This document shows positions 5,114 through 14,921 of a stretch of 64,000 bases of DNA, piece after piece. This stretch comes from a virus. The translations under genes and the position numbers were made by a program. The stretch spans positions 6,167-70,166 of the IMG/VR virus record IMGVR_UViG_3300045988_154566; one strand, written 5' to 3'. The notes below the pieces were generated by a model. The model was not told the DNA's origin, ran no database searches, and worked only from the letters and a program-made list of their open reading frames with translations. Numbering within the stretch: the first letter of the stretch is position 1; each line of letters starts with the position of its first letter.

Positions 5114-5437
5114 AATAACCTCTTTTCTGTCTCTCTCTTGAAAGACTATCAATTTTATTTTACGGTTTTCGTTCACCGCACCATTATAATATCATACCCA
5201 GTTTTTAATGTCAACACTTTTTTCAAAAATTTTTAAAATTTTTTTCATGCCCTATTTTCAAGGCTTTTCACGCACCCAAACACATGCAGCAGACAGTTAT
5301 TTGACTACATTTTTAGTCATCAATAGTGACGATGTGTCTACTTTTGTAGTCAGATAGTCACTCATTATGGGATATGATTAGTCTTGTAGTCGCACCCAAT
5401 GTCGATTTGAAAAGTTTAATTAAGTAGTCAAATAGGC

Positions 5438-5470
5438 AAAATGCGGTGCGCTTTATGGGAGGAAGCGCGC
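5438..5470 (+). promoter_or_regulatory. conserved module AAAATGCGGTGCGCTTTATGGGAGGAAGCGC, copy 1: hairpin GCGCTT/AAGCGC with GGGAGG in the loop and a tiny ORF MGGSAP
   Basis: Near-identical copy at 6895-6926. Both are preceded by AT-rich TGACTA-containing sequence with TTGAAA-18-(-10-like) spacing. Confidence 0.45.
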
Positions 5471-5487
5471 CGTTCAAAATAACTAAC

Positions 5488-5610
5488 CAAAGTTAGTCAA
5501 GCTTAACAATAGTTAGACTAAACTAATTAGATTTCGGGAAGACTAACTTGAGTTAGTTTGAATTAACAAGCATTAAGCTTGACTAACTTAAGTTAGTTTC
5601 CTTAAACTGG
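5488..5610. repeat. iteron array 2: about 5 copies of CTAAC-N4-GTTAG plus one GTTTGAATTAACAAG
   Basis: Copies: ctaaccaaagttag, ttaacaatagttag, ctaacttgagttag, ctaacttaagttag. Followed by hairpin GTGCGGA...TCCGCAC at 5617-5639. Confidence 0.8.
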
Positions 5611-5794
5611 GTGAGTGCGGATTAGCAGTTTCCGCACTTATCTAATAAACTAGACATAAAGCCAATAATGAACTCCATAAGACTAAGAAGTTCGTCATCA
5701 GATATGACTATGTGTGTAAGTACAAAGTCAATCTGACTATTGGCTTCTGTGACAGTGGAGCATTGCTCCACCATCACTATTGCTTCTATAAAGG

Positions 5795-6271
5795 TCATGC
5801 TATCACCTCCCCTGTTTTCTCATTCACCAAGTCACATCTAAGACCTAGTATCTTGCAGGCTTTAGCAGTATTGTAGAACACTGCCTGTGCCTTGCCATAA
5901 CTCTCAATCTTTGTAAAGATTGGAGTATTGCCATTATAAATTCCATAAGATTCAGCTTCTTTTGTCTGAATCTCATAGTCGCCCACACAATGAGCGACAT
6001 GGTCGAGAATGAAGTTTAACACTTCACCCTCAAACTCCAACTCTGGAGCTGAATTGAGGCAATCAACCTCATATTCCCAAGGGAACCATTCTCCCTCAGT
6101 GAATATTGCCCCTCTTAAAAGGAGTTGACAGAGGTGCGGAGCTGCTGAATACTCCTTGACCTCCTCAAGACGGATAACAGCCTCTCCGTCTGTGCAGAGG
6201 TAAGTTCCTTCCTCTGCTTTACCATAGCCTGCCAGTGGCATGTCCACTGGCATTTTAAAGCCTCTAATCAT
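5795..6271 (-). CDS. hypothetical acidic protein
   Basis: ATG start with GGAGAGGAAGG ribosome-binding site. Confidence 0.5.
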   Translation of the reverse strand: MIRGFKMPVDMPLAGYGKAEEGTYLCTDGEAVIRLEEVKEYSAAPHLCQLLLRGAIFTEGEWFPWEYEVDCLNSAPELEFEGEVLNFILDHVAHCVGDYEIQTKEAESYGIYNGNTPIFTKIESYGKAQAVFYNTAKACKILGLRCDLVNEKTGEVIA

Positions 6272-6319
6272 ATTTTATTCCTTCCTCTCCGTCAAGCCGA
6301 TGAGCCAGCTAAATCTATA

Positions 6320-7602: not shown

Positions 7603-8685
7603 ATGGAGCAACAAAAAGAAAATAGTGATTATATTAAAATGGATTTTAGTATTGAATCACCTGCAGAAAGAGTAGAAAAAGTAAAAGAAATTATTGCCAA
7701 CACTCCTCCTGAAAGATTAACTCATTCTTACTTAGAAAAATTAAGTAACTACATAATTTTTGCTATGGATAAAGAAGAAAGAAAACAAAATAAAATCTTA
7801 ACAGATAACCATATGCAAACAGTAAATGTAAGAGAGACATCTTTTGAAGGACTTGTAGGCAGATTAGAAAATGGCGAAGATGGCATATATAATATGATTG
7901 CGAATGACAAAAATATTATATTTAAACCAAAATTTGAAATCACAGATGCGGATGTCGCGGAAATGCCTGAGTTAAGGGAACTCCGCAAGGGTATAGAAGA
8001 ATTAAAGGAACAATTAAAAACAGCAAGAGGCAAAAAAGCATATCAAATAAAAAAACATATCATAGAAGCAAGTCAAGACCAGTATGTAATAAAAAATTCT
8101 TATAAAAAACCTATCTATTGTATAAATCCCCTTAAAAGTGTAGCAAAATTAGATTTAGATGAACATGTAACTGTTGATGAAAATGATGAAATTCATACTG
8201 ATGGTATTTTAAGTTTACTCGTGCCGCAACATATTTGCGCGGTATTGTGTAATTATGAAAAATTAAGAATCCAAACTTGGAATAAACTAAATAGTGATGT
8301 TAAATGGTTTCTCGTAGATTTAGACAATCTAATAGATGAGACCTTAAAATATGATTATCCAATATATTATGATATTACTCTTTTAAAGATTCGCGGCTAT
8401 CAGAATGTAGATATCCAAGAATACTTAGAAATAAAATATAAAGTAAATCATTCTGTTGAATATATATCTTCTCTTTGGCGGAATAAGATACCAAAATTAC
8501 TCGCGGAAAAGGCACAAGAGAAATGGTTAGTTTGGTATTATACTAACAAAGCAGAAGGAAAATGGAAAAAATGTTCAAGATGTGGGCAAATTAAGTTAGC
8601 TAGTAATAGATTCTTTTCAAAAAATAATACAAGCAAAGACCATTTTTACAGTATATGTAAGTGTTGTAGAAATAAAAGAAAATAA
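7603..8685 (+). CDS. hypothetical protein with C-terminal Cys4 zinc-ribbon-like motif
   Basis: C-terminus: CSRCGQIKLASNRFFSKNNTSKDHFYSICKCCRNK. Confidence 0.5.
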   Translation: MEQQKENSDYIKMDFSIESPAERVEKVKEIIANTPPERLTHSYLEKLSNYIIFAMDKEERKQNKILTDNHMQTVNVRETSFEGLVGRLENGEDGIYNMIANDKNIIFKPKFEITDADVAEMPELRELRKGIEELKEQLKTARGKKAYQIKKHIIEASQDQYVIKNSYKKPIYCINPLKSVAKLDLDEHVTVDENDEIHTDGILSLLVPQHICAVLCNYEKLRIQTWNKLNSDVKWFLVDLDNLIDETLKYDYPIYYDITLLKIRGYQNVDIQEYLEIKYKVNHSVEYISSLWRNKIPKLLAEKAQEKWLVWYYTNKAEGKWKKCSRCGQIKLASNRFFSKNNTSKDHFYSICKCCRNKRK

Positions 8686-8703
8686 TGTAAAGGAGTTGAC
8701 TAA

Positions 8704-9996
8704 ATGGGCGCACAAGAAGTAGAGCCAGGGAAATATTACTGTGAAAAATGTCGTAAGACAATGGGCGCAGTACAATTTTTTACTTATAAAGATGGTAGTA
8801 AAAGCGAATTATGTAAACAATGCTTAACTATGCATATTAATAACTGGGAGCCAGAAACATTCAAATGGCTATTGGAAAAATTTGATGTTCCATATCTCCC
8901 TTGGGAATGGGATAAGATTAGAGACAAACAATATGCGAAAGACCCCTATAAAATGACTGGAAATAGTGTTTTTGGTCGTTATCTCGCGAAAATGAAATTA
9001 AATCAGTGGAATAAATATCATTGGTCTGATACTGAGCGGCTGGTGCGGGAAGCAGATGAACTTGCTAATAGGGCGGCTGCGGCAAAAGAAGAAGATGAAA
9101 AACTTGAGAATATGCGGAAGCTCGCGGATGAAGGTGCAATTAGTGAATCTCAATATCAAACATACGCGGAAACGCAGATTGAGAAACCTATACCTAAGCC
9201 AGAGAGTTTACCCAACCCATATGAGAATGGACAAGCTAATCCGGCATATCGGGCTGCCGCGCGAGCATCTGTTTATCCTGTAAATAATAATCCATTTGAA
9301 GAAATTGATTTACCAGATGTTGGAAATGATTTAACACAAGAGGATAAGATTTATTTAGCTACAAAATGGGGTAGATTTTATTCTGCGGAAGAGTGGGTAA
9401 CTTTAGAAAAGAAATATAATGATTTTACAAATTCATTTGATATACATTCTGCGGCAACTATAGATACTTTAATTTTTATTTGTAAGACTTCATTAAAAAT
9501 GAATCAGGCTCTTGATAGCGGAGACATTGAATCTTATCAAAAATTATCAAGAGTTTATGATGCACAAATGAAAGCTGCGAAGTTTACGGAAGCACAGAAT
9601 AAAGAAGATAAAAGTAATGACTTTGATGCTATTGGTTGCATAGTAGAGTTTTGTGAAAAAGAGGGCGGATTTATTCCAAGATTTTATACAGAAACTCCGC
9701 AGGATAAGGTTGATGTTGTTATTGCAGATGAAAAATCTTATGTTAAGTCTCTTGTTGATGGTGATTCTGGATTAGCGCAACAGATAGAGCAGTATCTTAA
9801 GAAGCGTGAAATCCTTGAAGAACAAAAGAGAAATAAGGAAAAAGCAAAATTAGAAGGTAAAGAGCAGATTGAATTAACAGATAAAGATATTCAAGAGTAT
9901 ATAGAGCATCAACAGAAAGAAAAAGAAAAAGATAATATCGCGGAAGATGATGATGAAGATAATTTTGGAAGTCTCTTTAGTATGGAGGTTGAGTAA
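8704..9996 (+). CDS. hypothetical protein with N-terminal Cys4 zinc ribbon (same motif as 7603-8685) and acidic C-terminus
   Basis: N-terminus: YYCEKCRKTMGAVQFFTYKDGSKSELCKQCL. Its position immediately upstream of the terminase makes a small-terminase or DNA-recognition role possible. Confidence 0.5.
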   Translation: MGAQEVEPGKYYCEKCRKTMGAVQFFTYKDGSKSELCKQCLTMHINNWEPETFKWLLEKFDVPYLPWEWDKIRDKQYAKDPYKMTGNSVFGRYLAKMKLNQWNKYHWSDTERLVREADELANRAAAAKEEDEKLENMRKLADEGAISESQYQTYAETQIEKPIPKPESLPNPYENGQANPAYRAAARASVYPVNNNPFEEIDLPDVGNDLTQEDKIYLATKWGRFYSAEEWVTLEKKYNDFTNSFDIHSAATIDTLIFICKTSLKMNQALDSGDIESYQKLSRVYDAQMKAAKFTEAQNKEDKSNDFDAIGCIVEFCEKEGGFIPRFYTETPQDKVDVVIADEKSYVKSLVDGDSGLAQQIEQYLKKREILEEQKRNKEKAKLEGKEQIELTDKDIQEYIEHQQKEKEKDNIAEDDDEDNFGSLFSMEVE

Positions 9997-10619
9997 TGAG
10001 TTTACAAAGTATACTAGACCTTTCCGCGGAAAGAGATAATAAAAAAGTAGGTTGTTCAGAAGAAAGATTAAGAGAATGCCTTCCCGAATTGCGGAAGGCT
10101 ATTGCTTTTTATCGTGAATATCCAGATATCTTTGTTGATGATATTAAAGGACCAGATTGTAACTTCCAATTTTATTTTTATCAGAGAGTTTTCTTAAGGT
10201 CGGTTATGAGACATCGTCGAGTCTATGCAGTTTTTCCACGTGCATATAGTAAATCATTCTTGACTATGATGGCTTTAATGTTGCGTGCAATTCTTTATCC
10301 AGGTGCGGCATTATTTGTAACTACAGGTGGAAAAGAGCAAGCTGCAAGTATTACAATCGCAAAGATTGAAGAAATTTGTCGGCTTATTCCCGCGCTAAAT
10401 AAAGAAATTAATTGGGATAGAGGAGCCTCAAAAAAATCAAAAGATAATGTAAAATATATCTTTAAGAATGGCTCTACTATTGATATTCTTGCGGCAAGGG
10501 AGTCATCCAGAGGTCAACGTCGTACAGGTGGAGCTATGGAAGAGTGTGTACTTATTGATGGAACTGCTTTGAACGAAATAATTATTCCTAGACTTATAAG
10601 GTTGTGGGACCTAATTTAG
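9996..10619 (+). CDS. terminase large subunit, N-terminal ATPase part (exon 1 or N-terminal fragment)
   Basis: Walker-A-like VFPRAYSKSF. Walker-B-like ECVLIDG near the end. Start overlaps the upstream stop (TAATGA). Confidence 0.6.
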   Translation: MSLQSILDLSAERDNKKVGCSEERLRECLPELRKAIAFYREYPDIFVDDIKGPDCNFQFYFYQRVFLRSVMRHRRVYAVFPRAYSKSFLTMMALMLRAILYPGAALFVTTGGKEQAASITIAKIEEICRLIPALNKEINWDRGASKKSKDNVKYIFKNGSTIDILAARESSRGQRRTGGAMEECVLIDGTALNEIIIPRLIRLWDLI

Positions 10620-11700
10620 TAATAAATTAGTGCATGAACGGTGTGAACCCATTGGTTATGGGGTGTAGTATAAGGATATACTGCTAACGGTTAGGCTATA
10701 AATAAAGTGAGACCGTGCTAAGTTTATATTTGTTATAAAAAAGTGTAGAGACTATCCAGAGGAGAAATACGCCTGGTTAGGGCTGAGAATAACCACAGCT
10801 CGAAGCGCACCGCAACTTTTTAAAATTTTTGGTCAAAAATATAAAATAAAATTGTTCATTTTTTTAATTTTATTGAGGGTATGTATATCCCGGGATAAAA
10901 CTGAGTTATAGAAAGGAATTAAAAAAATGATTCAATGGAAAAAAATTTTTATAGATGAAAAAGAGACTAATTACAGTGTTTCTAGCACTGGAGAGGTTAG
11001 AAATGATATAACTAAAAAAATATTATCACAAAGAATTCAACAAGGGTATAAACATGTAACTTTATCATTACCAAATAAGATAAAATCATGTCGAGTTCAT
11101 AGACTTGTAGCACAAGCCTTTATTAAGAATCCTGAAAACAAGCCCTATGTGAATCATATTGATTGTGATAGAAGTAACAATAATGTTGAAAATTTAGAAT
11201 GGGTAACGCCAAAAGAGAATTCTCAAAAAGCGGTTCTAGAAGGTAAATTTTTAAATAGTTCCCATTTAAGACCTGTTGTTCAATATAATTTAGCAGGGAA
11301 AAAGATTAGAACTTTTGAAAGTGCCACTGAGGCAGCAAGACAGTTAAATTTACAACAATCTAAAATAACAGAATGTTGTAGAAGAAATAGAAAAAGAACC
11401 GGAGAATATCAATGGAGATATGCAGATGAAGAATGTCTTCAATTAGAACCTATTCAAAAACAAAATCACCCTGGAGTGAAAGTTGCAAGATGCAACGATG
11501 ATTTAGTTATATTAGAAATTTATAATTCTTATAAAGAAGCAGCAAATGCAATAAAAGGTAGTTATCAAGCTATTGCTGCAATATGTAATGGAACAACTAT
11601 AAATATTCATCATAAAGGCTGGAGATGGAAAAAAGTTGATGATATAGTCCAATCAAAAAAAGATTGACAACTAATGTTGATAGACGACTCGCAGATGGTA
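10600..11700 (+). mobile_element. putative group I intron, or a free-standing homing-endonuclease insertion, interrupting the terminase large-subunit gene and carrying an HNH ORF
   Basis: About 300 nt of structured non-coding sequence at 10620-10926 with GAGACC/GAGACTA-type elements. The HNH ORF has its own ribosome-binding site. The terminase ATPase motif III (ITTAG) resumes downstream in the same frame as exon 1. Boundaries are approximate. Confidence 0.45.
10927..11667 (+). CDS. HNH homing endonuclease (NUMOD4 N-terminus, HNH_3 core, NUMOD1-like C-terminal DNA-binding repeats)
   Basis: Motifs WKKIFIDE...YSVSSTGEVRN and HRLVAQAF...NHIDCDRSNNNVENLEWVTPKEN. Confidence 0.8.
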   Translation: MIQWKKIFIDEKETNYSVSSTGEVRNDITKKILSQRIQQGYKHVTLSLPNKIKSCRVHRLVAQAFIKNPENKPYVNHIDCDRSNNNVENLEWVTPKENSQKAVLEGKFLNSSHLRPVVQYNLAGKKIRTFESATEAARQLNLQQSKITECCRRNRKRTGEYQWRYADEECLQLEPIQKQNHPGVKVARCNDDLVILEIYNSYKEAANAIKGSYQAIAAICNGTTINIHHKGWRWKKVDDIVQSKKD

Positions 11701-12815
11701 GTAGAGACCCTAAAGAGACAGTAAATAAAAGTCAGGTATATATTACGACTGCGGGATGGAAGAATTCATTCGCATACGAGCACCTCATTGAGATGTTAAT
11801 TGATTCAATTCTAGACCCAGGTGAAGTAATGATATTAGGTGGAACATATGAAGTTCCAGTTGAAGCGGGCTTGTTAAGTGAAGACTTTGTAGACCAGTTA
11901 AAATTACAAGGTACTTTCAATGATGCCTCCTTTGACCGAGAATATCGGAGTATTTGGTCAGGAGATGCGGAAAATGCTTTCTTCTCTAATGAATTATTTG
12001 ATAAATATCGTCAATTACTTCAACCAGAATATGAATTCAGTTCAAGAAGTTCAAAGAACGCATACTATATACTTTCAGTCGATGTAGGTCGTTTTGGATG
12101 TACAACTGAGGTTATGGTTATAAAGGTAACGCCGCAAGTGCAAGGAACAGCATTGAAGACTCTTGTTAATATTTATAGCTATGATGAAGAACATTTTGGA
12201 GTTCAAGCTATAAATATAAAAAAACTTTATTACAAATATCGTGCGAGAACCGTGGTTATAGATGCCAATGGTCTAGGTGCTGGACTTGTGGACTTTATGA
12301 TAATAGGTCAAGAAGACCCGAAAACAGGAGAATATTATCCACCTTTTGGAGTAGAAGGCGGAACTTTCGATGATTGGTATGACCAGTATAAGAAATTTAA
12401 AACAGATGATATGGTTAGAGATGCGATGTATTTAATTAAGGCTAATGCGCCAATCAATACTGAAGCTCATAGCTATTGTCAAACTCAAATATCTAGTGGA
12501 AAAATTAAATTTTTAATTGATGAAAGAGATGCAAAAATAAAGTTAATGTCTACAAAAGTTGGTCAAGAAATGACTCCAGAGCAACGTGCAGAAAGGTTGA
12601 TACCATTCACTTTAACCACGATACTAAAGGAACAGATGTTGAATCTGGTGGAAGAGAACGAGGGTGTAAATATTATTCTTAAGCAAGCTAATAGAGGAAT
12701 TAAGAAAGATAAATTCTCTGCTTTTGAGTATGGATTATATTATATAAAACAGCAAGAAGATAGGAAAAAAGATAGACATAGTAGAGATATTTCAAAGATG
12801 ATGTTTTTCAGTTAA
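11664..12815 (+). CDS. terminase large subunit, C-terminal part (rest of ATPase plus RNase-H-like nuclease)
   Basis: ITTAGW motif III. Nuclease motifs ILSVDVGRFG and VVIDANGLGAGL. The ORF-track start is a TTG overlapping the HNH stop. The true 5' end is probably a splice junction near 11690-11720. Confidence 0.6.
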   Translation: MTTNVDRRLADGSRDPKETVNKSQVYITTAGWKNSFAYEHLIEMLIDSILDPGEVMILGGTYEVPVEAGLLSEDFVDQLKLQGTFNDASFDREYRSIWSGDAENAFFSNELFDKYRQLLQPEYEFSSRSSKNAYYILSVDVGRFGCTTEVMVIKVTPQVQGTALKTLVNIYSYDEEHFGVQAINIKKLYYKYRARTVVIDANGLGAGLVDFMIIGQEDPKTGEYYPPFGVEGGTFDDWYDQYKKFKTDDMVRDAMYLIKANAPINTEAHSYCQTQISSGKIKFLIDERDAKIKLMSTKVGQEMTPEQRAERLIPFTLTTILKEQMLNLVEENEGVNIILKQANRGIKKDKFSAFEYGLYYIKQQEDRKKDRHSRDISKMMFFS

Positions 12816-12820
12816 AAAAT

Positions 12821-12857
12821 GCGGGCAGATTTATGTAATTTGCCCGTACTTATTTTT
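12821..12857 (+). terminator. intrinsic terminator after the terminase gene
   Basis: Hairpin CGGGCA-N13-TGCCCG followed by a T-rich run. Confidence 0.4.
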
Positions 12858-12893
12858 AATTAATATAGTAAGGATTACATCATTGCACATAAT

Positions 12894-13265
12894 GTGGAGG
12901 TGAGTAATTTGAGAAGTTCTCGCGGAGAAATAAAAATTGAAGAAATTTTAACAATGGCAAATTTACCTTTTCAAGAGGAATATAGTTTTCCAGACTTAGT
13001 AAGTTCAAGTGGAAGACCATTGCGTTTTGACTTCTGTGTATTCGATGATAATGGAGATATAGATTTCTTAATCGAGTATCAAGGTATCCAACACTACGAG
13101 GCCAAGTCGAAATTTGGAGGTACTAAAGGATTATATCGCCAGCAATACAATGATAAGATGAAAAGAATTTATTGTCAACAACATAATTATACTTTAGTTA
13201 TTGTTCCTTATTGGGAAGAAGGACTCGTAGATTACGATTATTTATTAAAAGCCGCAGGTTATTGA
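12894..13265 (+). CDS. hypothetical small protein, possibly a Vsr/DUF559-like PD-(D/E)xK nuclease
   Basis: Pattern RFDFCVFDD...FLIEYQGIQHYE. Weak motif-level similarity only. Confidence 0.35.
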   Translation: MEVSNLRSSRGEIKIEEILTMANLPFQEEYSFPDLVSSSGRPLRFDFCVFDDNGDIDFLIEYQGIQHYEAKSKFGGTKGLYRQQYNDKMKRIYCQQHNYTLVIVPYWEEGLVDYDYLLKAAGY

Positions 13266-13316: not shown

Positions 13317-14921
13317 GTGACTGAAAGAACCAAGGAGATTAGAGAAAAAGGTTTTGATATGTTCAATAAAGAACCTTCAGCTCCGACAACCTTTTACAAA
13401 GATATGTTTTCTGAAGATAAATCAGATATCTATTTTAGTAGTGTAAAAGTAGGTCAAAAGAAACTTGATGATGCAACTTTAACACTTAGTGATTTAAAGA
13501 AAGCAAATCCAAGATTGGCTGATAAAAATACTATTTTACAAGCAATAGATAGATATGATTTAAAACAAATGAGAGAAATCTCTGATTTCTTTTATCGAAC
13601 AAGTGGGATTTATTCCAGAATATTAAGATATATGGCATTTATGTATAGATATGACTATTTTATTACTCCTTATGTTAATGACCCAAATATGAATAAAGAA
13701 AAACTATTAAAAGGTTTTTATAATTCAATGTCAACTTTAGATAATTTTAAAGTTAAAAAAACATTGGGTGAAATTGCATTAAAAGTATTAAGACATGGAT
13801 GTTATTATGGATATAAAGTTGAACAAAGCGGTGGAATTGTGTTACAAGAATTACCACCAAATTATTGCAGAAGCAGATTCTCAGCTAATGGTAAACCCGC
13901 AGTTGAATTTAATATGAAATTTTTTGATGATAATTTTAGAGATATTCAACAGAGATTACAAGTATTAAACATATTCCCAAAAGAGTTTTCTAAAGGATAT
14001 GTAAAATATAAAAAAGGTTTATTACCACCTCAATTTTCAGGTGACACAAATGGTTGGTATTTATTAGACCCAAAACAAACAGTTAGATTCACTGCAAATG
14101 GAGAAGAATATCCTGCTTTTATTTCTGTGATTCCTTTAATATTAGATTTAGATGAAGCACAAGGTCTTGATAGAAAGAAAACCTTACAAAGATTATTAAA
14201 ACTTGTCGTTCAAAAAATGCCTTTAGACAAGAATGGAGAAATGATTTTTGATGTTGATGAAATGAGGGCTTTTCATAATAATGCAGTTATGATGTTAAAA
14301 AATGCTTTAGGCTTAGAGGTTTTAACAACACTTGCGGATGTTAGTGTAGAAGATATGACTGATAGTAATGCATCTGCGCAAACGGATGATTTGCAAAGAG
14401 TTGAGCGTCAGTTATATAATGAAGCGGGTGTGTCTCAAATGCAGTTTAATACAGATGGTAATATTGCATTAGAGAAATCTATTTTAAATGATGAAGCTAC
14501 AATGTATAATATGCTTTTACAATTTGAATATTTTTTAAATGAGTTACTAGAACCTTATAACAAAAGTCCAAAGAAAGTTCAATATAAAGTACAGTTATTA
14601 ACTACAACTATTTATAATTATAAAGAACTTTCAAAAGCATATAAAGAACAAACCCAATTAGGTTATTCTAAGATGTTGCCGCAGATAGCTTTAGGTCAAA
14701 CTCAAAGTAGTATTTTAGCTACTGCTTATTTTGAGAATGAAGTTCTTGATTTAGTTAGTTTATTCATCCCACCTATGCAAAGTAGCGTAATGAACGCAGA
14801 TATGTTAGATAGAACATCTAAAAAAATTGCAAATGGAAATGAAAAAGAGGCGGGAAGACCTGAAAAAGAAGATGACCAAAAATCAACTAAAACTTTACAG
14901 AATAAAGAAAGTATGAGCTAG
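13317..14921 (+). CDS. portal protein candidate
   Basis: 534 aa, immediately downstream of the terminase. GTG start per the ORF track. Assignment is positional only. Confidence 0.4.
   Translation: MTERTKEIREKGFDMFNKEPSAPTTFYKDMFSEDKSDIYFSSVKVGQKKLDDATLTLSDLKKANPRLADKNTILQAIDRYDLKQMREISDFFYRTSGIYSRILRYMAFMYRYDYFITPYVNDPNMNKEKLLKGFYNSMSTLDNFKVKKTLGEIALKVLRHGCYYGYKVEQSGGIVLQELPPNYCRSRFSANGKPAVEFNMKFFDDNFRDIQQRLQVLNIFPKEFSKGYVKYKKGLLPPQFSGDTNGWYLLDPKQTVRFTANGEEYPAFISVIPLILDLDEAQGLDRKKTLQRLLKLVVQKMPLDKNGEMIFDVDEMRAFHNNAVMMLKNALGLEVLTTLADVSVEDMTDSNASAQTDDLQRVERQLYNEAGVSQMQFNTDGNIALEKSILNDEATMYNMLLQFEYFLNELLEPYNKSPKKVQYKVQLLTTTIYNYKELSKAYKEQTQLGYSKMLPQIALGQTQSSILATAYFENEVLDLVSLFIPPMQSSVMNADMLDRTSKKIANGNEKEAGRPEKEDDQKSTKTLQNKESMS

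Follow-up and report, generated by a model that had tools for sequence, protein, structure and literature searches.

A probable mobile group I intron with an HNH endonuclease gene in the terminase large subunit gene of an SPbeta-like gut phage

Introduction

In a stretch of viral DNA of 64,000 nucleotides (positions 6,167 to 70,166 of IMG/VR record IMGVR_UViG_3300045988_154566; below, the window, numbered from its first letter), the gene for the large subunit of the packaging terminase, terL, appears as two open reading frames (ORFs) with an HNH endonuclease ORF between them. The question raised by this locus is whether the terminase is restored by removal of an intron from the RNA or is made as two separate polypeptides. 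A first reading made from the letters alone (the sequence-only reading) described a packaging gene into which a mobile element, likely a group I intron, had moved, and named gene fission as the alternative. The analysis described here strongly favors the former: positions 10590-11666 are very probably a mobile, self-splicing group I intron of the IA type that carries an HNH endonuclease gene within terL, with RNA structure, covariation and relatives all in agreement. The evidence consists of exact boundaries and restoration of the reading frame, a conserved and covarying structure, endonuclease domains, and presence or absence of the element among near-identical phages; from these we infer that splicing and homing actually take place. 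Both the element and its target are of known kinds, and the standard model misses this new example.

Boundaries of the insert and intron-less alleles

The three ORFs lie where the sequence-only reading placed them, at 9996-10619 (207 amino acids), 10927-11667 (246 amino acids) and 11664-12815 (383 amino acids), and the outer two share a frame (11664 - 9996 = 1668 = 3 x 556). A trial fusion of the two terminase halves, used as a protein-database query, retrieved thousands of uninterrupted homologues of 575-583 amino acids, whose alignment runs ...ALNEIIIP|TTNVDRR... without a gap over the junction. Two of these, P0001 (580 amino acids, 89% identity) and P0002 (100% identical over the aligned part), are both continuous over IIIP|TTN. 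The N-terminal ORF diverges from these proteins after P198, continuing as RLIRLWDLI to its stop codon, and the C-terminal ORF rejoins them at T, the codon after its TTG. By this alignment, the intron supplies the last nine codons and the stop codon of the N-terminal ORF, as well as the TTG with which the C-terminal ORF seems to begin. The estimate in the sequence-only reading that about 25 codons are removed with the insert does not hold, since the homologues align without a gap and none is missing. The interruption of about 1.05 kb that it described is indeed present; the true boundaries are 10590 and 11666 (1,077 nucleotides) rather than the ORF ends at 10619 and 11664.

The same boundaries are seen in DNA. 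The two contigs that encode P0002 (L002 and L003), which have about 95% DNA identity to the window, are without exactly 10590-11666, and match window positions 8000-10588 and 11667-12638 contiguously (blastn; the L002 alignment stops at 10588). Exon 1 ends ...AUUCCU (codons ATT ATT CCT, with U at position -1) and exon 2 begins ACAACU, so that the ligated junction would read ...AUUAUUCCU|ACAACUAAUG..., compared to GAAATCATTATTCCA|ACTACAAATGTCGAT at the intron-less site of L002, where the junction codon is CCA instead of CCU. Removal of the intron restores the frame exactly and matches both the uninterrupted proteins and the intron-less DNA allele. The comparison with uninterrupted terminase genes, which the sequence-only reading had proposed, thus locates the insertion site exactly (10589/10590 and 11666/11667), with these parts:

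9996..10589, + strand: terL exon 1, residues 1-198, from alignment to uninterrupted P0001/P0002, blastn to L002 and a phrog_2 match
10590..11666, + strand: probable group I intron of 1,077 nucleotides (3 x 359), AGACUU...GAUUG, with omega-G at 11666, from presence/absence against L002/L003
11667..12815, + strand: terL exon 2, residues 199-580, with the nuclease domain; L002 4595-5566 matches window 11667-12638

The U at -1 and the G at the 3' end of the intron are kept in all five variants compared (5/5). Base-exact boundaries at this canonical U|...G| pair would not be expected of an assembly or sequencing artefact, for example an endonuclease gene wrongly joined to terL in a chimera. No specific support was found for such an artefact, and independent assemblies agree with the window: another IMG/VR contig of the same phage (L004, 96.6% identical) also has the intron-interrupted terL, and a third assembly (L108, see below) has an orthologous insert. 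The probability of an artefact is therefore negligible.

Relatives with an insert at the same site

Relatives were found by pattern scans with conserved core sequence and then filtered. The 15-mer GAGACTATCCAGAGG occurred at 47 loci in viral contigs and CAGCTCGAAGCGCACCG at 39, nearly all of them chance matches, with only L004 and L005 relevant; a scan of a genome collection gave 18 loci, with L108 the sole true copy. L005 (which is also contig L053) and L054/L052 have inserts of 253 and 250 nucleotides at the identical codon junction, with no ORF. The insert of L108 at this site is 1,051 nucleotides long and includes an orthologous HNH ORF. The L108 sequence is CACYVR010000001.1 (138.8 kb), which has an SPbeta-like terL and is labelled uncultured Methanobrevibacter sp. 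RUG12316, an archaeal metagenome-assembled genome bin; it is most likely a misbinned phage contig. An ORF-less intron is also present at this site in a cultured phage, Enterococcus phage EF1. ORF-bearing and ORF-less variants thus coexist at one insertion site.

These relatives bear directly on the proposal of gene fission, in which a free-standing HNH gene has split terL so that the terminase is made as two polypeptides, the C-terminal one being translated from the TTG at 11664 by translational coupling. In T4-like phages, genes are known that are split by an intervening free-standing endonuclease gene. However, L005, L054 and EF1 carry an insert of roughly 250-280 nucleotides at the same site without any ORF, and a free-standing endonuclease gene cannot explain these.

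Secondary structure of the intron

A secondary structure was derived from four distinct variants (the window, L005, L054 and L108), which are 75-79% identical (21-25% diverged); the P8 loop was trimmed in the two ORF-bearing ones. For comparison, the L005 and EF1 copies were aligned to the Rfam group I intron model, RF00028. The elements in the window are as follows:

10586..10609, + strand: P1, exon UCCU (10586-10589) with guide GGGA (10606-10609) and a G•U at the splice site; 100% of alignment cells paired
10601..10605, + strand: guide part of P10, GUUGU with the exon 2 start ACAAC (11667-11671); 5 pairs
10611..10630, + strand: P2 hairpin, GNRA loop GUAA (GUGA in the variants); 2 compensatory pairs
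10639..10645, + strand: P3 5' strand, CGGUGUG, partner 10806-10812; 7 base pairs, invariant in the four variants
10648-10662 and 10665-10684, + strand: two extra hairpins between P3 and P4 (P3.1/P3.2-like), also in EF1 as an insertion against RF00028
10687..10716, + strand: P4-P5; P4 invariant; the EF1 homologue aligns to RF00028 P4-P6
10718..10743, + strand: P6/P6a; 3 compensatory pairs
10748..10755, + strand: P7 5' strand within the R-like GUGUAGAGACUAUCC (G, bulged A, GACUAU), pairing with 11644-11650; 7 base pairs, invariant; guanosine-binding helix
10756-10776 and 10780-10801, + strand: P7.1 and P7.2, between P7 and P3'; RF00028 alignments (L005, EF1) show an insertion exactly there
10806..10812, + strand: P3 3' strand, CGCACCG, pairing with 10639-10645; from RNAalifold and the RF00028 alignment of L005
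10813..10821, + strand: P8 5' strand CAACUUUUU, pairing with 11630-11638; one compensatory change, U-A to A-U
10927..11667, + strand: HNH homing-endonuclease ORF, 246 amino acids, with NUMOD4, HNH_3 and NUMOD1; in the P8 loop
11630..11666, + strand: 3' core, with P8' AAAAAGUUG (11630-11638), the S-like GAUAUAGUCC with P7' AUAGUCC (11644-11650), P9 (11651-11665) and omega-G (11666)

The two ends of the exons are held by one guide: the 9-nucleotide sequence GUUGUGGGA (10601-10609) is complementary to the ligated junction UCCU|ACAAC. The exon base at -4 covaries with the guide, with UCCU/GGGA in the window and CCCU/GGGG in the three relatives (U-A versus C-G), and one pair (17/23) of the intron-side extension of P1 (10590-10594 with 10600-10605) also covaries. 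All five P10 pairs are formed in 4/4 variants and are invariant, so that they show no covariation.

The core is likewise well defined. In EF1, P3 is GGUGGUG/CGCCACC where the variants have GGUGUG/CGCACC, and this compensating extra base pair supports P3. The R-like GUGUAGAGACUAUCC and S-like GAUAUAGUCC sequences together make P7, which aligns to the RF00028 P7 in both L005 and EF1; the pattern GAWATAGTCY occurs once in the 64-kb window. P9 is a short hairpin, AAUC-A7-GAUU, with two compensatory pairs. The P8 loop, which holds the endonuclease ORF in the window, is 9 nucleotides long in L005 and 8 in L054. Two other assignments were rejected. A P3 5' strand GGGUGU at 10661 was set aside for CGGUGUG at 10639, which gives seven base pairs and the extra pair of EF1, and the hairpin at 10648-10662 was not taken as P4 because the segment beginning GACCGUGCUAAG fits the P4'-P6 part of the RF00028 alignment in EF1.

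Across the four variants, 99.7% of the cells of the 79 proposed pairs are standard-paired. In helices P1-P9 and the two hairpins, 11 pairs are changed on both sides, compared to 3.0 ± 1.5 in shuffled alignments (0 of 500 reach this value), and in the full 79-pair set 12 pairs are so changed, compared to 4.1 ± 1.4 (again 0 of 500). As a control, sliding the 3' partners left just 0-2 such pairs. Compensatory changes are seen in P1, P2, P6, P8 and P9. RNAalifold independently recovered P2, P3, P4, P6, P7.1, P7.2, P8, P9 and most of P1, although the exon-guide pairs were shifted by one register; P7 is missing from its prediction because the tool cannot form a pseudoknot.

A tertiary contact is also supported by covariation. 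The loop of the first P3-P4 hairpin, UGGUU (10653-10657), can form a five-base-pair kissing interaction with AACCA (10791-10795) in the loop of P7.2, and all 20 cells are paired (20/20). The sequences are UGGUU/AACCA in the window and L005 versus UAGUC/GACUA in L054 and L108, with both sides changed in two pairs. Inspection by eye did not reveal this pairing in the EF1 homologue. The two hairpins correspond to optional "P3.1"-type helices that are already known (PMC3873408).

The presence of P7.1 and P7.2 between P7 and P3' points to subgroup IA. These two helices are class-defining peripheral elements (PMC3984707), and phage introns usually belong to IA (PMC3984707, PMC11878797).

The endonuclease gene and the 3' splice site

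The middle ORF matches NUMOD4, HNH_3, NUMOD1 and I-HmuI_NUMOD-like in Pfam, all over the cut-offs, which bears out its earlier description as an HNH_3/NUMOD ORF. It also matches phrog_59, "HNH endonuclease" (2e-46), the family most often found in Bastillevirinae introns (PMC11878797), and the protein of PDB entry 1U3E, I-HmuI (E=6.5e-13), in an alignment that matches the H/N/N residues of the HNH motif. The product is 77.6% identical in amino acids to its intact L108 orthologue. From its sequence, the ORF is assigned as an I-HmuI-like HNH homing endonuclease with a predicted function in mobility. The ribosome-binding site that had been claimed is present as a Shine-Dalgarno-like GAAAGGA, 9 nucleotides ahead of the ATG, and the roughly 300 nucleotides of noncoding sequence amount to 307 from the stop of the N-terminal ORF to that ATG, or 337 from the true 5' splice site. 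A promoter scan gave nothing convincing for this ORF.

At its 3' end the ORF reads through P8', J8/7, P7' and P9, which supply its last ~13 codons (...W K K V D D I V Q S K K D), and its UGA stop straddles the 3' splice site as UG|A. The ORF-less relatives have a nearly identical 3' sequence, and thus the ORF appears to have adopted pre-existing ribozyme sequence as its C-terminal tail. Endonuclease ORFs that extend into core sequence are already known (PMC3984707, Fig. 2b).

This arrangement also accounts for the feature that had suggested fission, namely that the TTG at 11664 overlaps the TGA stop of the HNH gene. The intron ends in a conserved ...UUG, which is this TTG, and the ATTGA overlap is simply the terminal ...AUUG followed by the first exon base. 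A Shine-Dalgarno sequence is absent ahead of 11664. Furthermore, the noncoding sequence on either side of the ORF forms a group I core that shows covariation, with a guide that pairs with the ends of both exons. Together with the ORF-less inserts, these observations leave fission with translational coupling unsupported and highly improbable.

Rfam searches and the case for a decayed intron

Several observations weigh against a group I intron. RF00028 gave no match on the region, on its 401-nucleotide 5' part (scanned with hits admitted up to E=10) or on the whole window, with gathering and E-value thresholds, and the closest ORF-less homologue, L005, scored 23 bits where the gathering threshold is 50. 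The ORF-less variants have an unusually short P4-P5. For P3, P4 and P7 there is no covariation, as the sequences of the four close variants are the same there. Finally, the structure was proposed from the same four sequences that served in the covariation test, a small set (n=4).

The silence of RF00028 on the window is explained by the position of the ORF, which lies in a P8 loop of 820 nucleotides and thereby parts P7 from P7'. The R-like sequence is at 10743-10757 and the S-like sequence, which sits within the 3' end of the HNH ORF, is at 11641-11650, nearly 900 nucleotides away. On the ORF-less L005 copy the model gave 23.0 bits (E=0.004) in a full-length alignment (model positions 1-253), and this alignment set P7, P3', P8, P7', P9 and the terminal G exactly as they had been placed by eye. 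On the same-site intron of EF1 it gave 52.1 bits (E=1e-12), so that the gathering score of 50 bits is reached by the EF1 homologue and not by the window. The sequence-only reading had proposed the RF00028 search and would have counted the lack of a group I core among the signs of fission, a rule that would wrongly have counted against the intron here. Other Rfam matches (L20 leader, which is the terL terminator; bxd_3; and microRNA families) were judged spurious.

The low Rfam score, the small P4-P5 and the fact that splicing is inferred are also what might be expected of a decayed intron that no longer splices, either in a terL pseudogene of a defective phage or because a host or phage splicing factor is needed. 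Against this, the core is kept by compensatory changes over variants that are 21-25% diverged, neither exon is broken and both have 89-100% identity to uninterrupted terminases, two lineages keep a complete endonuclease ORF (at the 77.6% identity given above), and terL is essential. Decay is accordingly quite improbable, slightly less so than fission.

Distribution, mobility and proposed mechanism

The terL genes of related phages are rich in introns. The contigs that lack the present intron, L002 and L003, carry a different 1.2-kb insert at the equivalent of window 12638/12639 (L002 5567-6766; RF00028 43.6 bits, E=1.7e-9), which has a 277-amino-acid HNH_3 ORF; its site is ...EQML|NLVE..., and the last 55 terL codons form a separate ORF. 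At the ITT|AG motif, L005 has a second intron (about 5155-6296; RF00028 81.6 bits), whose ORF resembles a GIY-YIG endonuclease when its sequence is judged by eye. In L052/L054 (about 1533-2676 of L054; reverse strand in L052) a single terL has at least four inserts, located before the YSKSF Walker A motif, after TTGGKE, at IIIP|TTN and after ITTAG. The EF1 terL has three introns that match RF00028. Positions 1415-1639 and 1906-2674 of L110 also belong to these intron-dense terL genes of relatives. Overall, this terL family has at least six insertion sites and up to four introns per gene.

Several features of the present site fit with homing. It lies inside a nearly invariant stretch of the protein alignment, NEIIIPTTN, as expected of a homing-endonuclease target. 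Intron-plus and intron-minus alleles have 9 differences within ±30 nucleotides of the site, compared to ~5% divergence overall; the excess is not significant and is at most suggestive of co-conversion. From its presence and absence among phages that are ~95% identical, the intron would appear to be mobile.

The proposed course of splicing is as follows. In the pre-mRNA, the guide GUUGUGGGA would pair with the last bases of exon 1 (UCCU, with the G•U) and the first bases of exon 2 (ACAAC). Two transesterifications, catalyzed by the core (P3-P8 and P4-P6, P7 being the guanosine pocket), would then join exon 1 to exon 2, resulting in an mRNA for the uninterrupted 580-amino-acid terminase (...NEIIIP-TTNVDRR...). 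By analogy with I-HmuI and I-BasI, the endonuclease would nick or cut intron-less terL alleles during a mixed infection, and repair would copy the intron into them.

A further, rather doubtful possibility is that this intron and its same-site relatives (L005, L054, L108 and EF1) make up a distinct IA-like lineage that is poorly captured by RF00028, marked by the two P3-P4 hairpins, the first of them kissing L7.2, and by an ORF that recruits P8'-P7'-P9 and the first exon base as C-terminal codons and stop. If this were true, a given RNA molecule could either be translated into the endonuclease or fold into the catalytic core, but not both, and the clade, with its insertion sites numbering at least six, would be a natural system for the study of intron-endonuclease assembly.

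The terminase gene and its neighborhood

The identity of the interrupted gene rests on several comparisons. The joined halves match phrog_2, "terminase large subunit" (E=3e-21), and also phrog_5909, and the joined protein is 45% identical to the annotated terminases of Enterococcus phage H1 and Geobacillus virus E3. Exon 1 carries a deviant Walker A motif, PRAYSKS, and a Walker-B-like GAMEE; the ITTAG motif noted earlier in the C-terminal part was confirmed, being coded by 11739-11753 in exon 2. Pfam found nothing in either of the outer ORFs, and the terminase query had no match among PDB sequences. The assignment fits the neighboring genes, which are a YonG_N protein upstream and a portal gene downstream (13317-14921; phrog_2739, 4e-85). 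In SPbeta-like phages these genes have the same order, yonG-yonF-yonE. The host gene is the large terminase, of the YonF type, of an SPbeta-like gut phage. It is followed by:

12820..12848, + strand: terminator-like hairpin after terL, then a T-run

A weak Rfam "L20 leader" match (12763-12861, + strand; 27.6 bits, E=0.017) corresponds to this intrinsic-terminator hairpin.

Other observations concern the same region. Two families of "unknown function", phrog_15503 and phrog_24618, match terL residues 8-232 and 349-578 far better than the terminase family does; from their lengths of 245 and 230 positions, both families would seem to derive from pieces of terL genes split by introns. A 123-amino-acid ORF (12894-13265, + strand) that lies between terL and the portal gene matches phrog_9084, "homing endonuclease" (9e-28), and phrog_559, with no Pfam match, and is possibly a free-standing homing-endonuclease gene that is short or truncated. 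The phrog_559 family is a VSR-like nuclease family that has been reported within terL introns of Bastillevirinae. Upstream of the packaging genes, a 360-amino-acid ORF (7603-8685, + strand) matches the phage sigma-factor family phrog_5767 (2e-49), and its Cys-rich C-terminus (residues 318-360) has a weak endonuclease-VII-like match to phrog_1035.

Significance

The value of this example is modest and lies in an annotation fix, a lesson in method, the covarying contact between the hairpin and L7.2, and the many introns of this terL family; it leaves the understanding of group I introns as it was. For annotation, two "hypothetical" ORFs and an HNH gene should become one spliced terL with an intron feature. 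For method, it shows that a group I intron may well be present where RF00028 finds nothing, if an ORF occupies P8; the question is then decided by comparing alleles that lack the intron or the ORF. The YonF-type terminase of SPbeta-like gut phages and Enterococcus phages joins the list of intron hot spots.

Comparison with known systems

The closest parallels are the DNA polymerase introns of SPO1 and SP82 (I-HmuI/I-HmuII) and of Bastille (I-BasI), which likewise are IA-type introns in an essential, conserved gene of phages of Gram-positive bacteria. They also encode an endonuclease with HNH and NUMOD domains. In contrast to them, the host gene here is terL rather than DNA polymerase, the protein has low identity to I-HmuI, and the ORF lies in P8 and extends to the 3' splice site.

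Terminases are listed as typical intron targets (PMC3984707), and group I introns in terL have been reported in Bastillevirinae and other phages (PMC11878797). These introns are in the same gene class, are mostly IA-like, and can be several to one terL; as here, the nuclease-coding loop interrupts the ribozyme and defeats covariance models on one or both sides. The terminase families differ (YonF/SPbeta-like phrog_2 here versus phrog_675 there), as do the insertion site and the phage lineage, an uncultured gut phage in the present case.

The first of the three introns in the terL gene of Enterococcus phages EF1/EF5 (MF001358) is at the same insertion point, I-(I/L)-P | ...N. Its core is homologous, with GGUGUAGAGACUAUCC, GAAGCGC..ACC and AUAGUCCAAU...AUUG, the two P3-P4 hairpins and P7.1/P7.2, whereas it is without an ORF and has a longer, more canonical P4-P5. 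In the MF001358 annotation, only the HNH protein of the third intron is called "Phage intron".

Finally, the td, nrdB and sunY introns of phage T4 (IA2) and the Twort introns likewise have P7.1/P7.2, a mobile and optional distribution, and an endonuclease ORF looped out of the core. The T4 enzymes, in contrast, are of GIY-YIG or other types and are encoded in P6 or P9 loops; the likeness to the present intron noted here is one of architecture.

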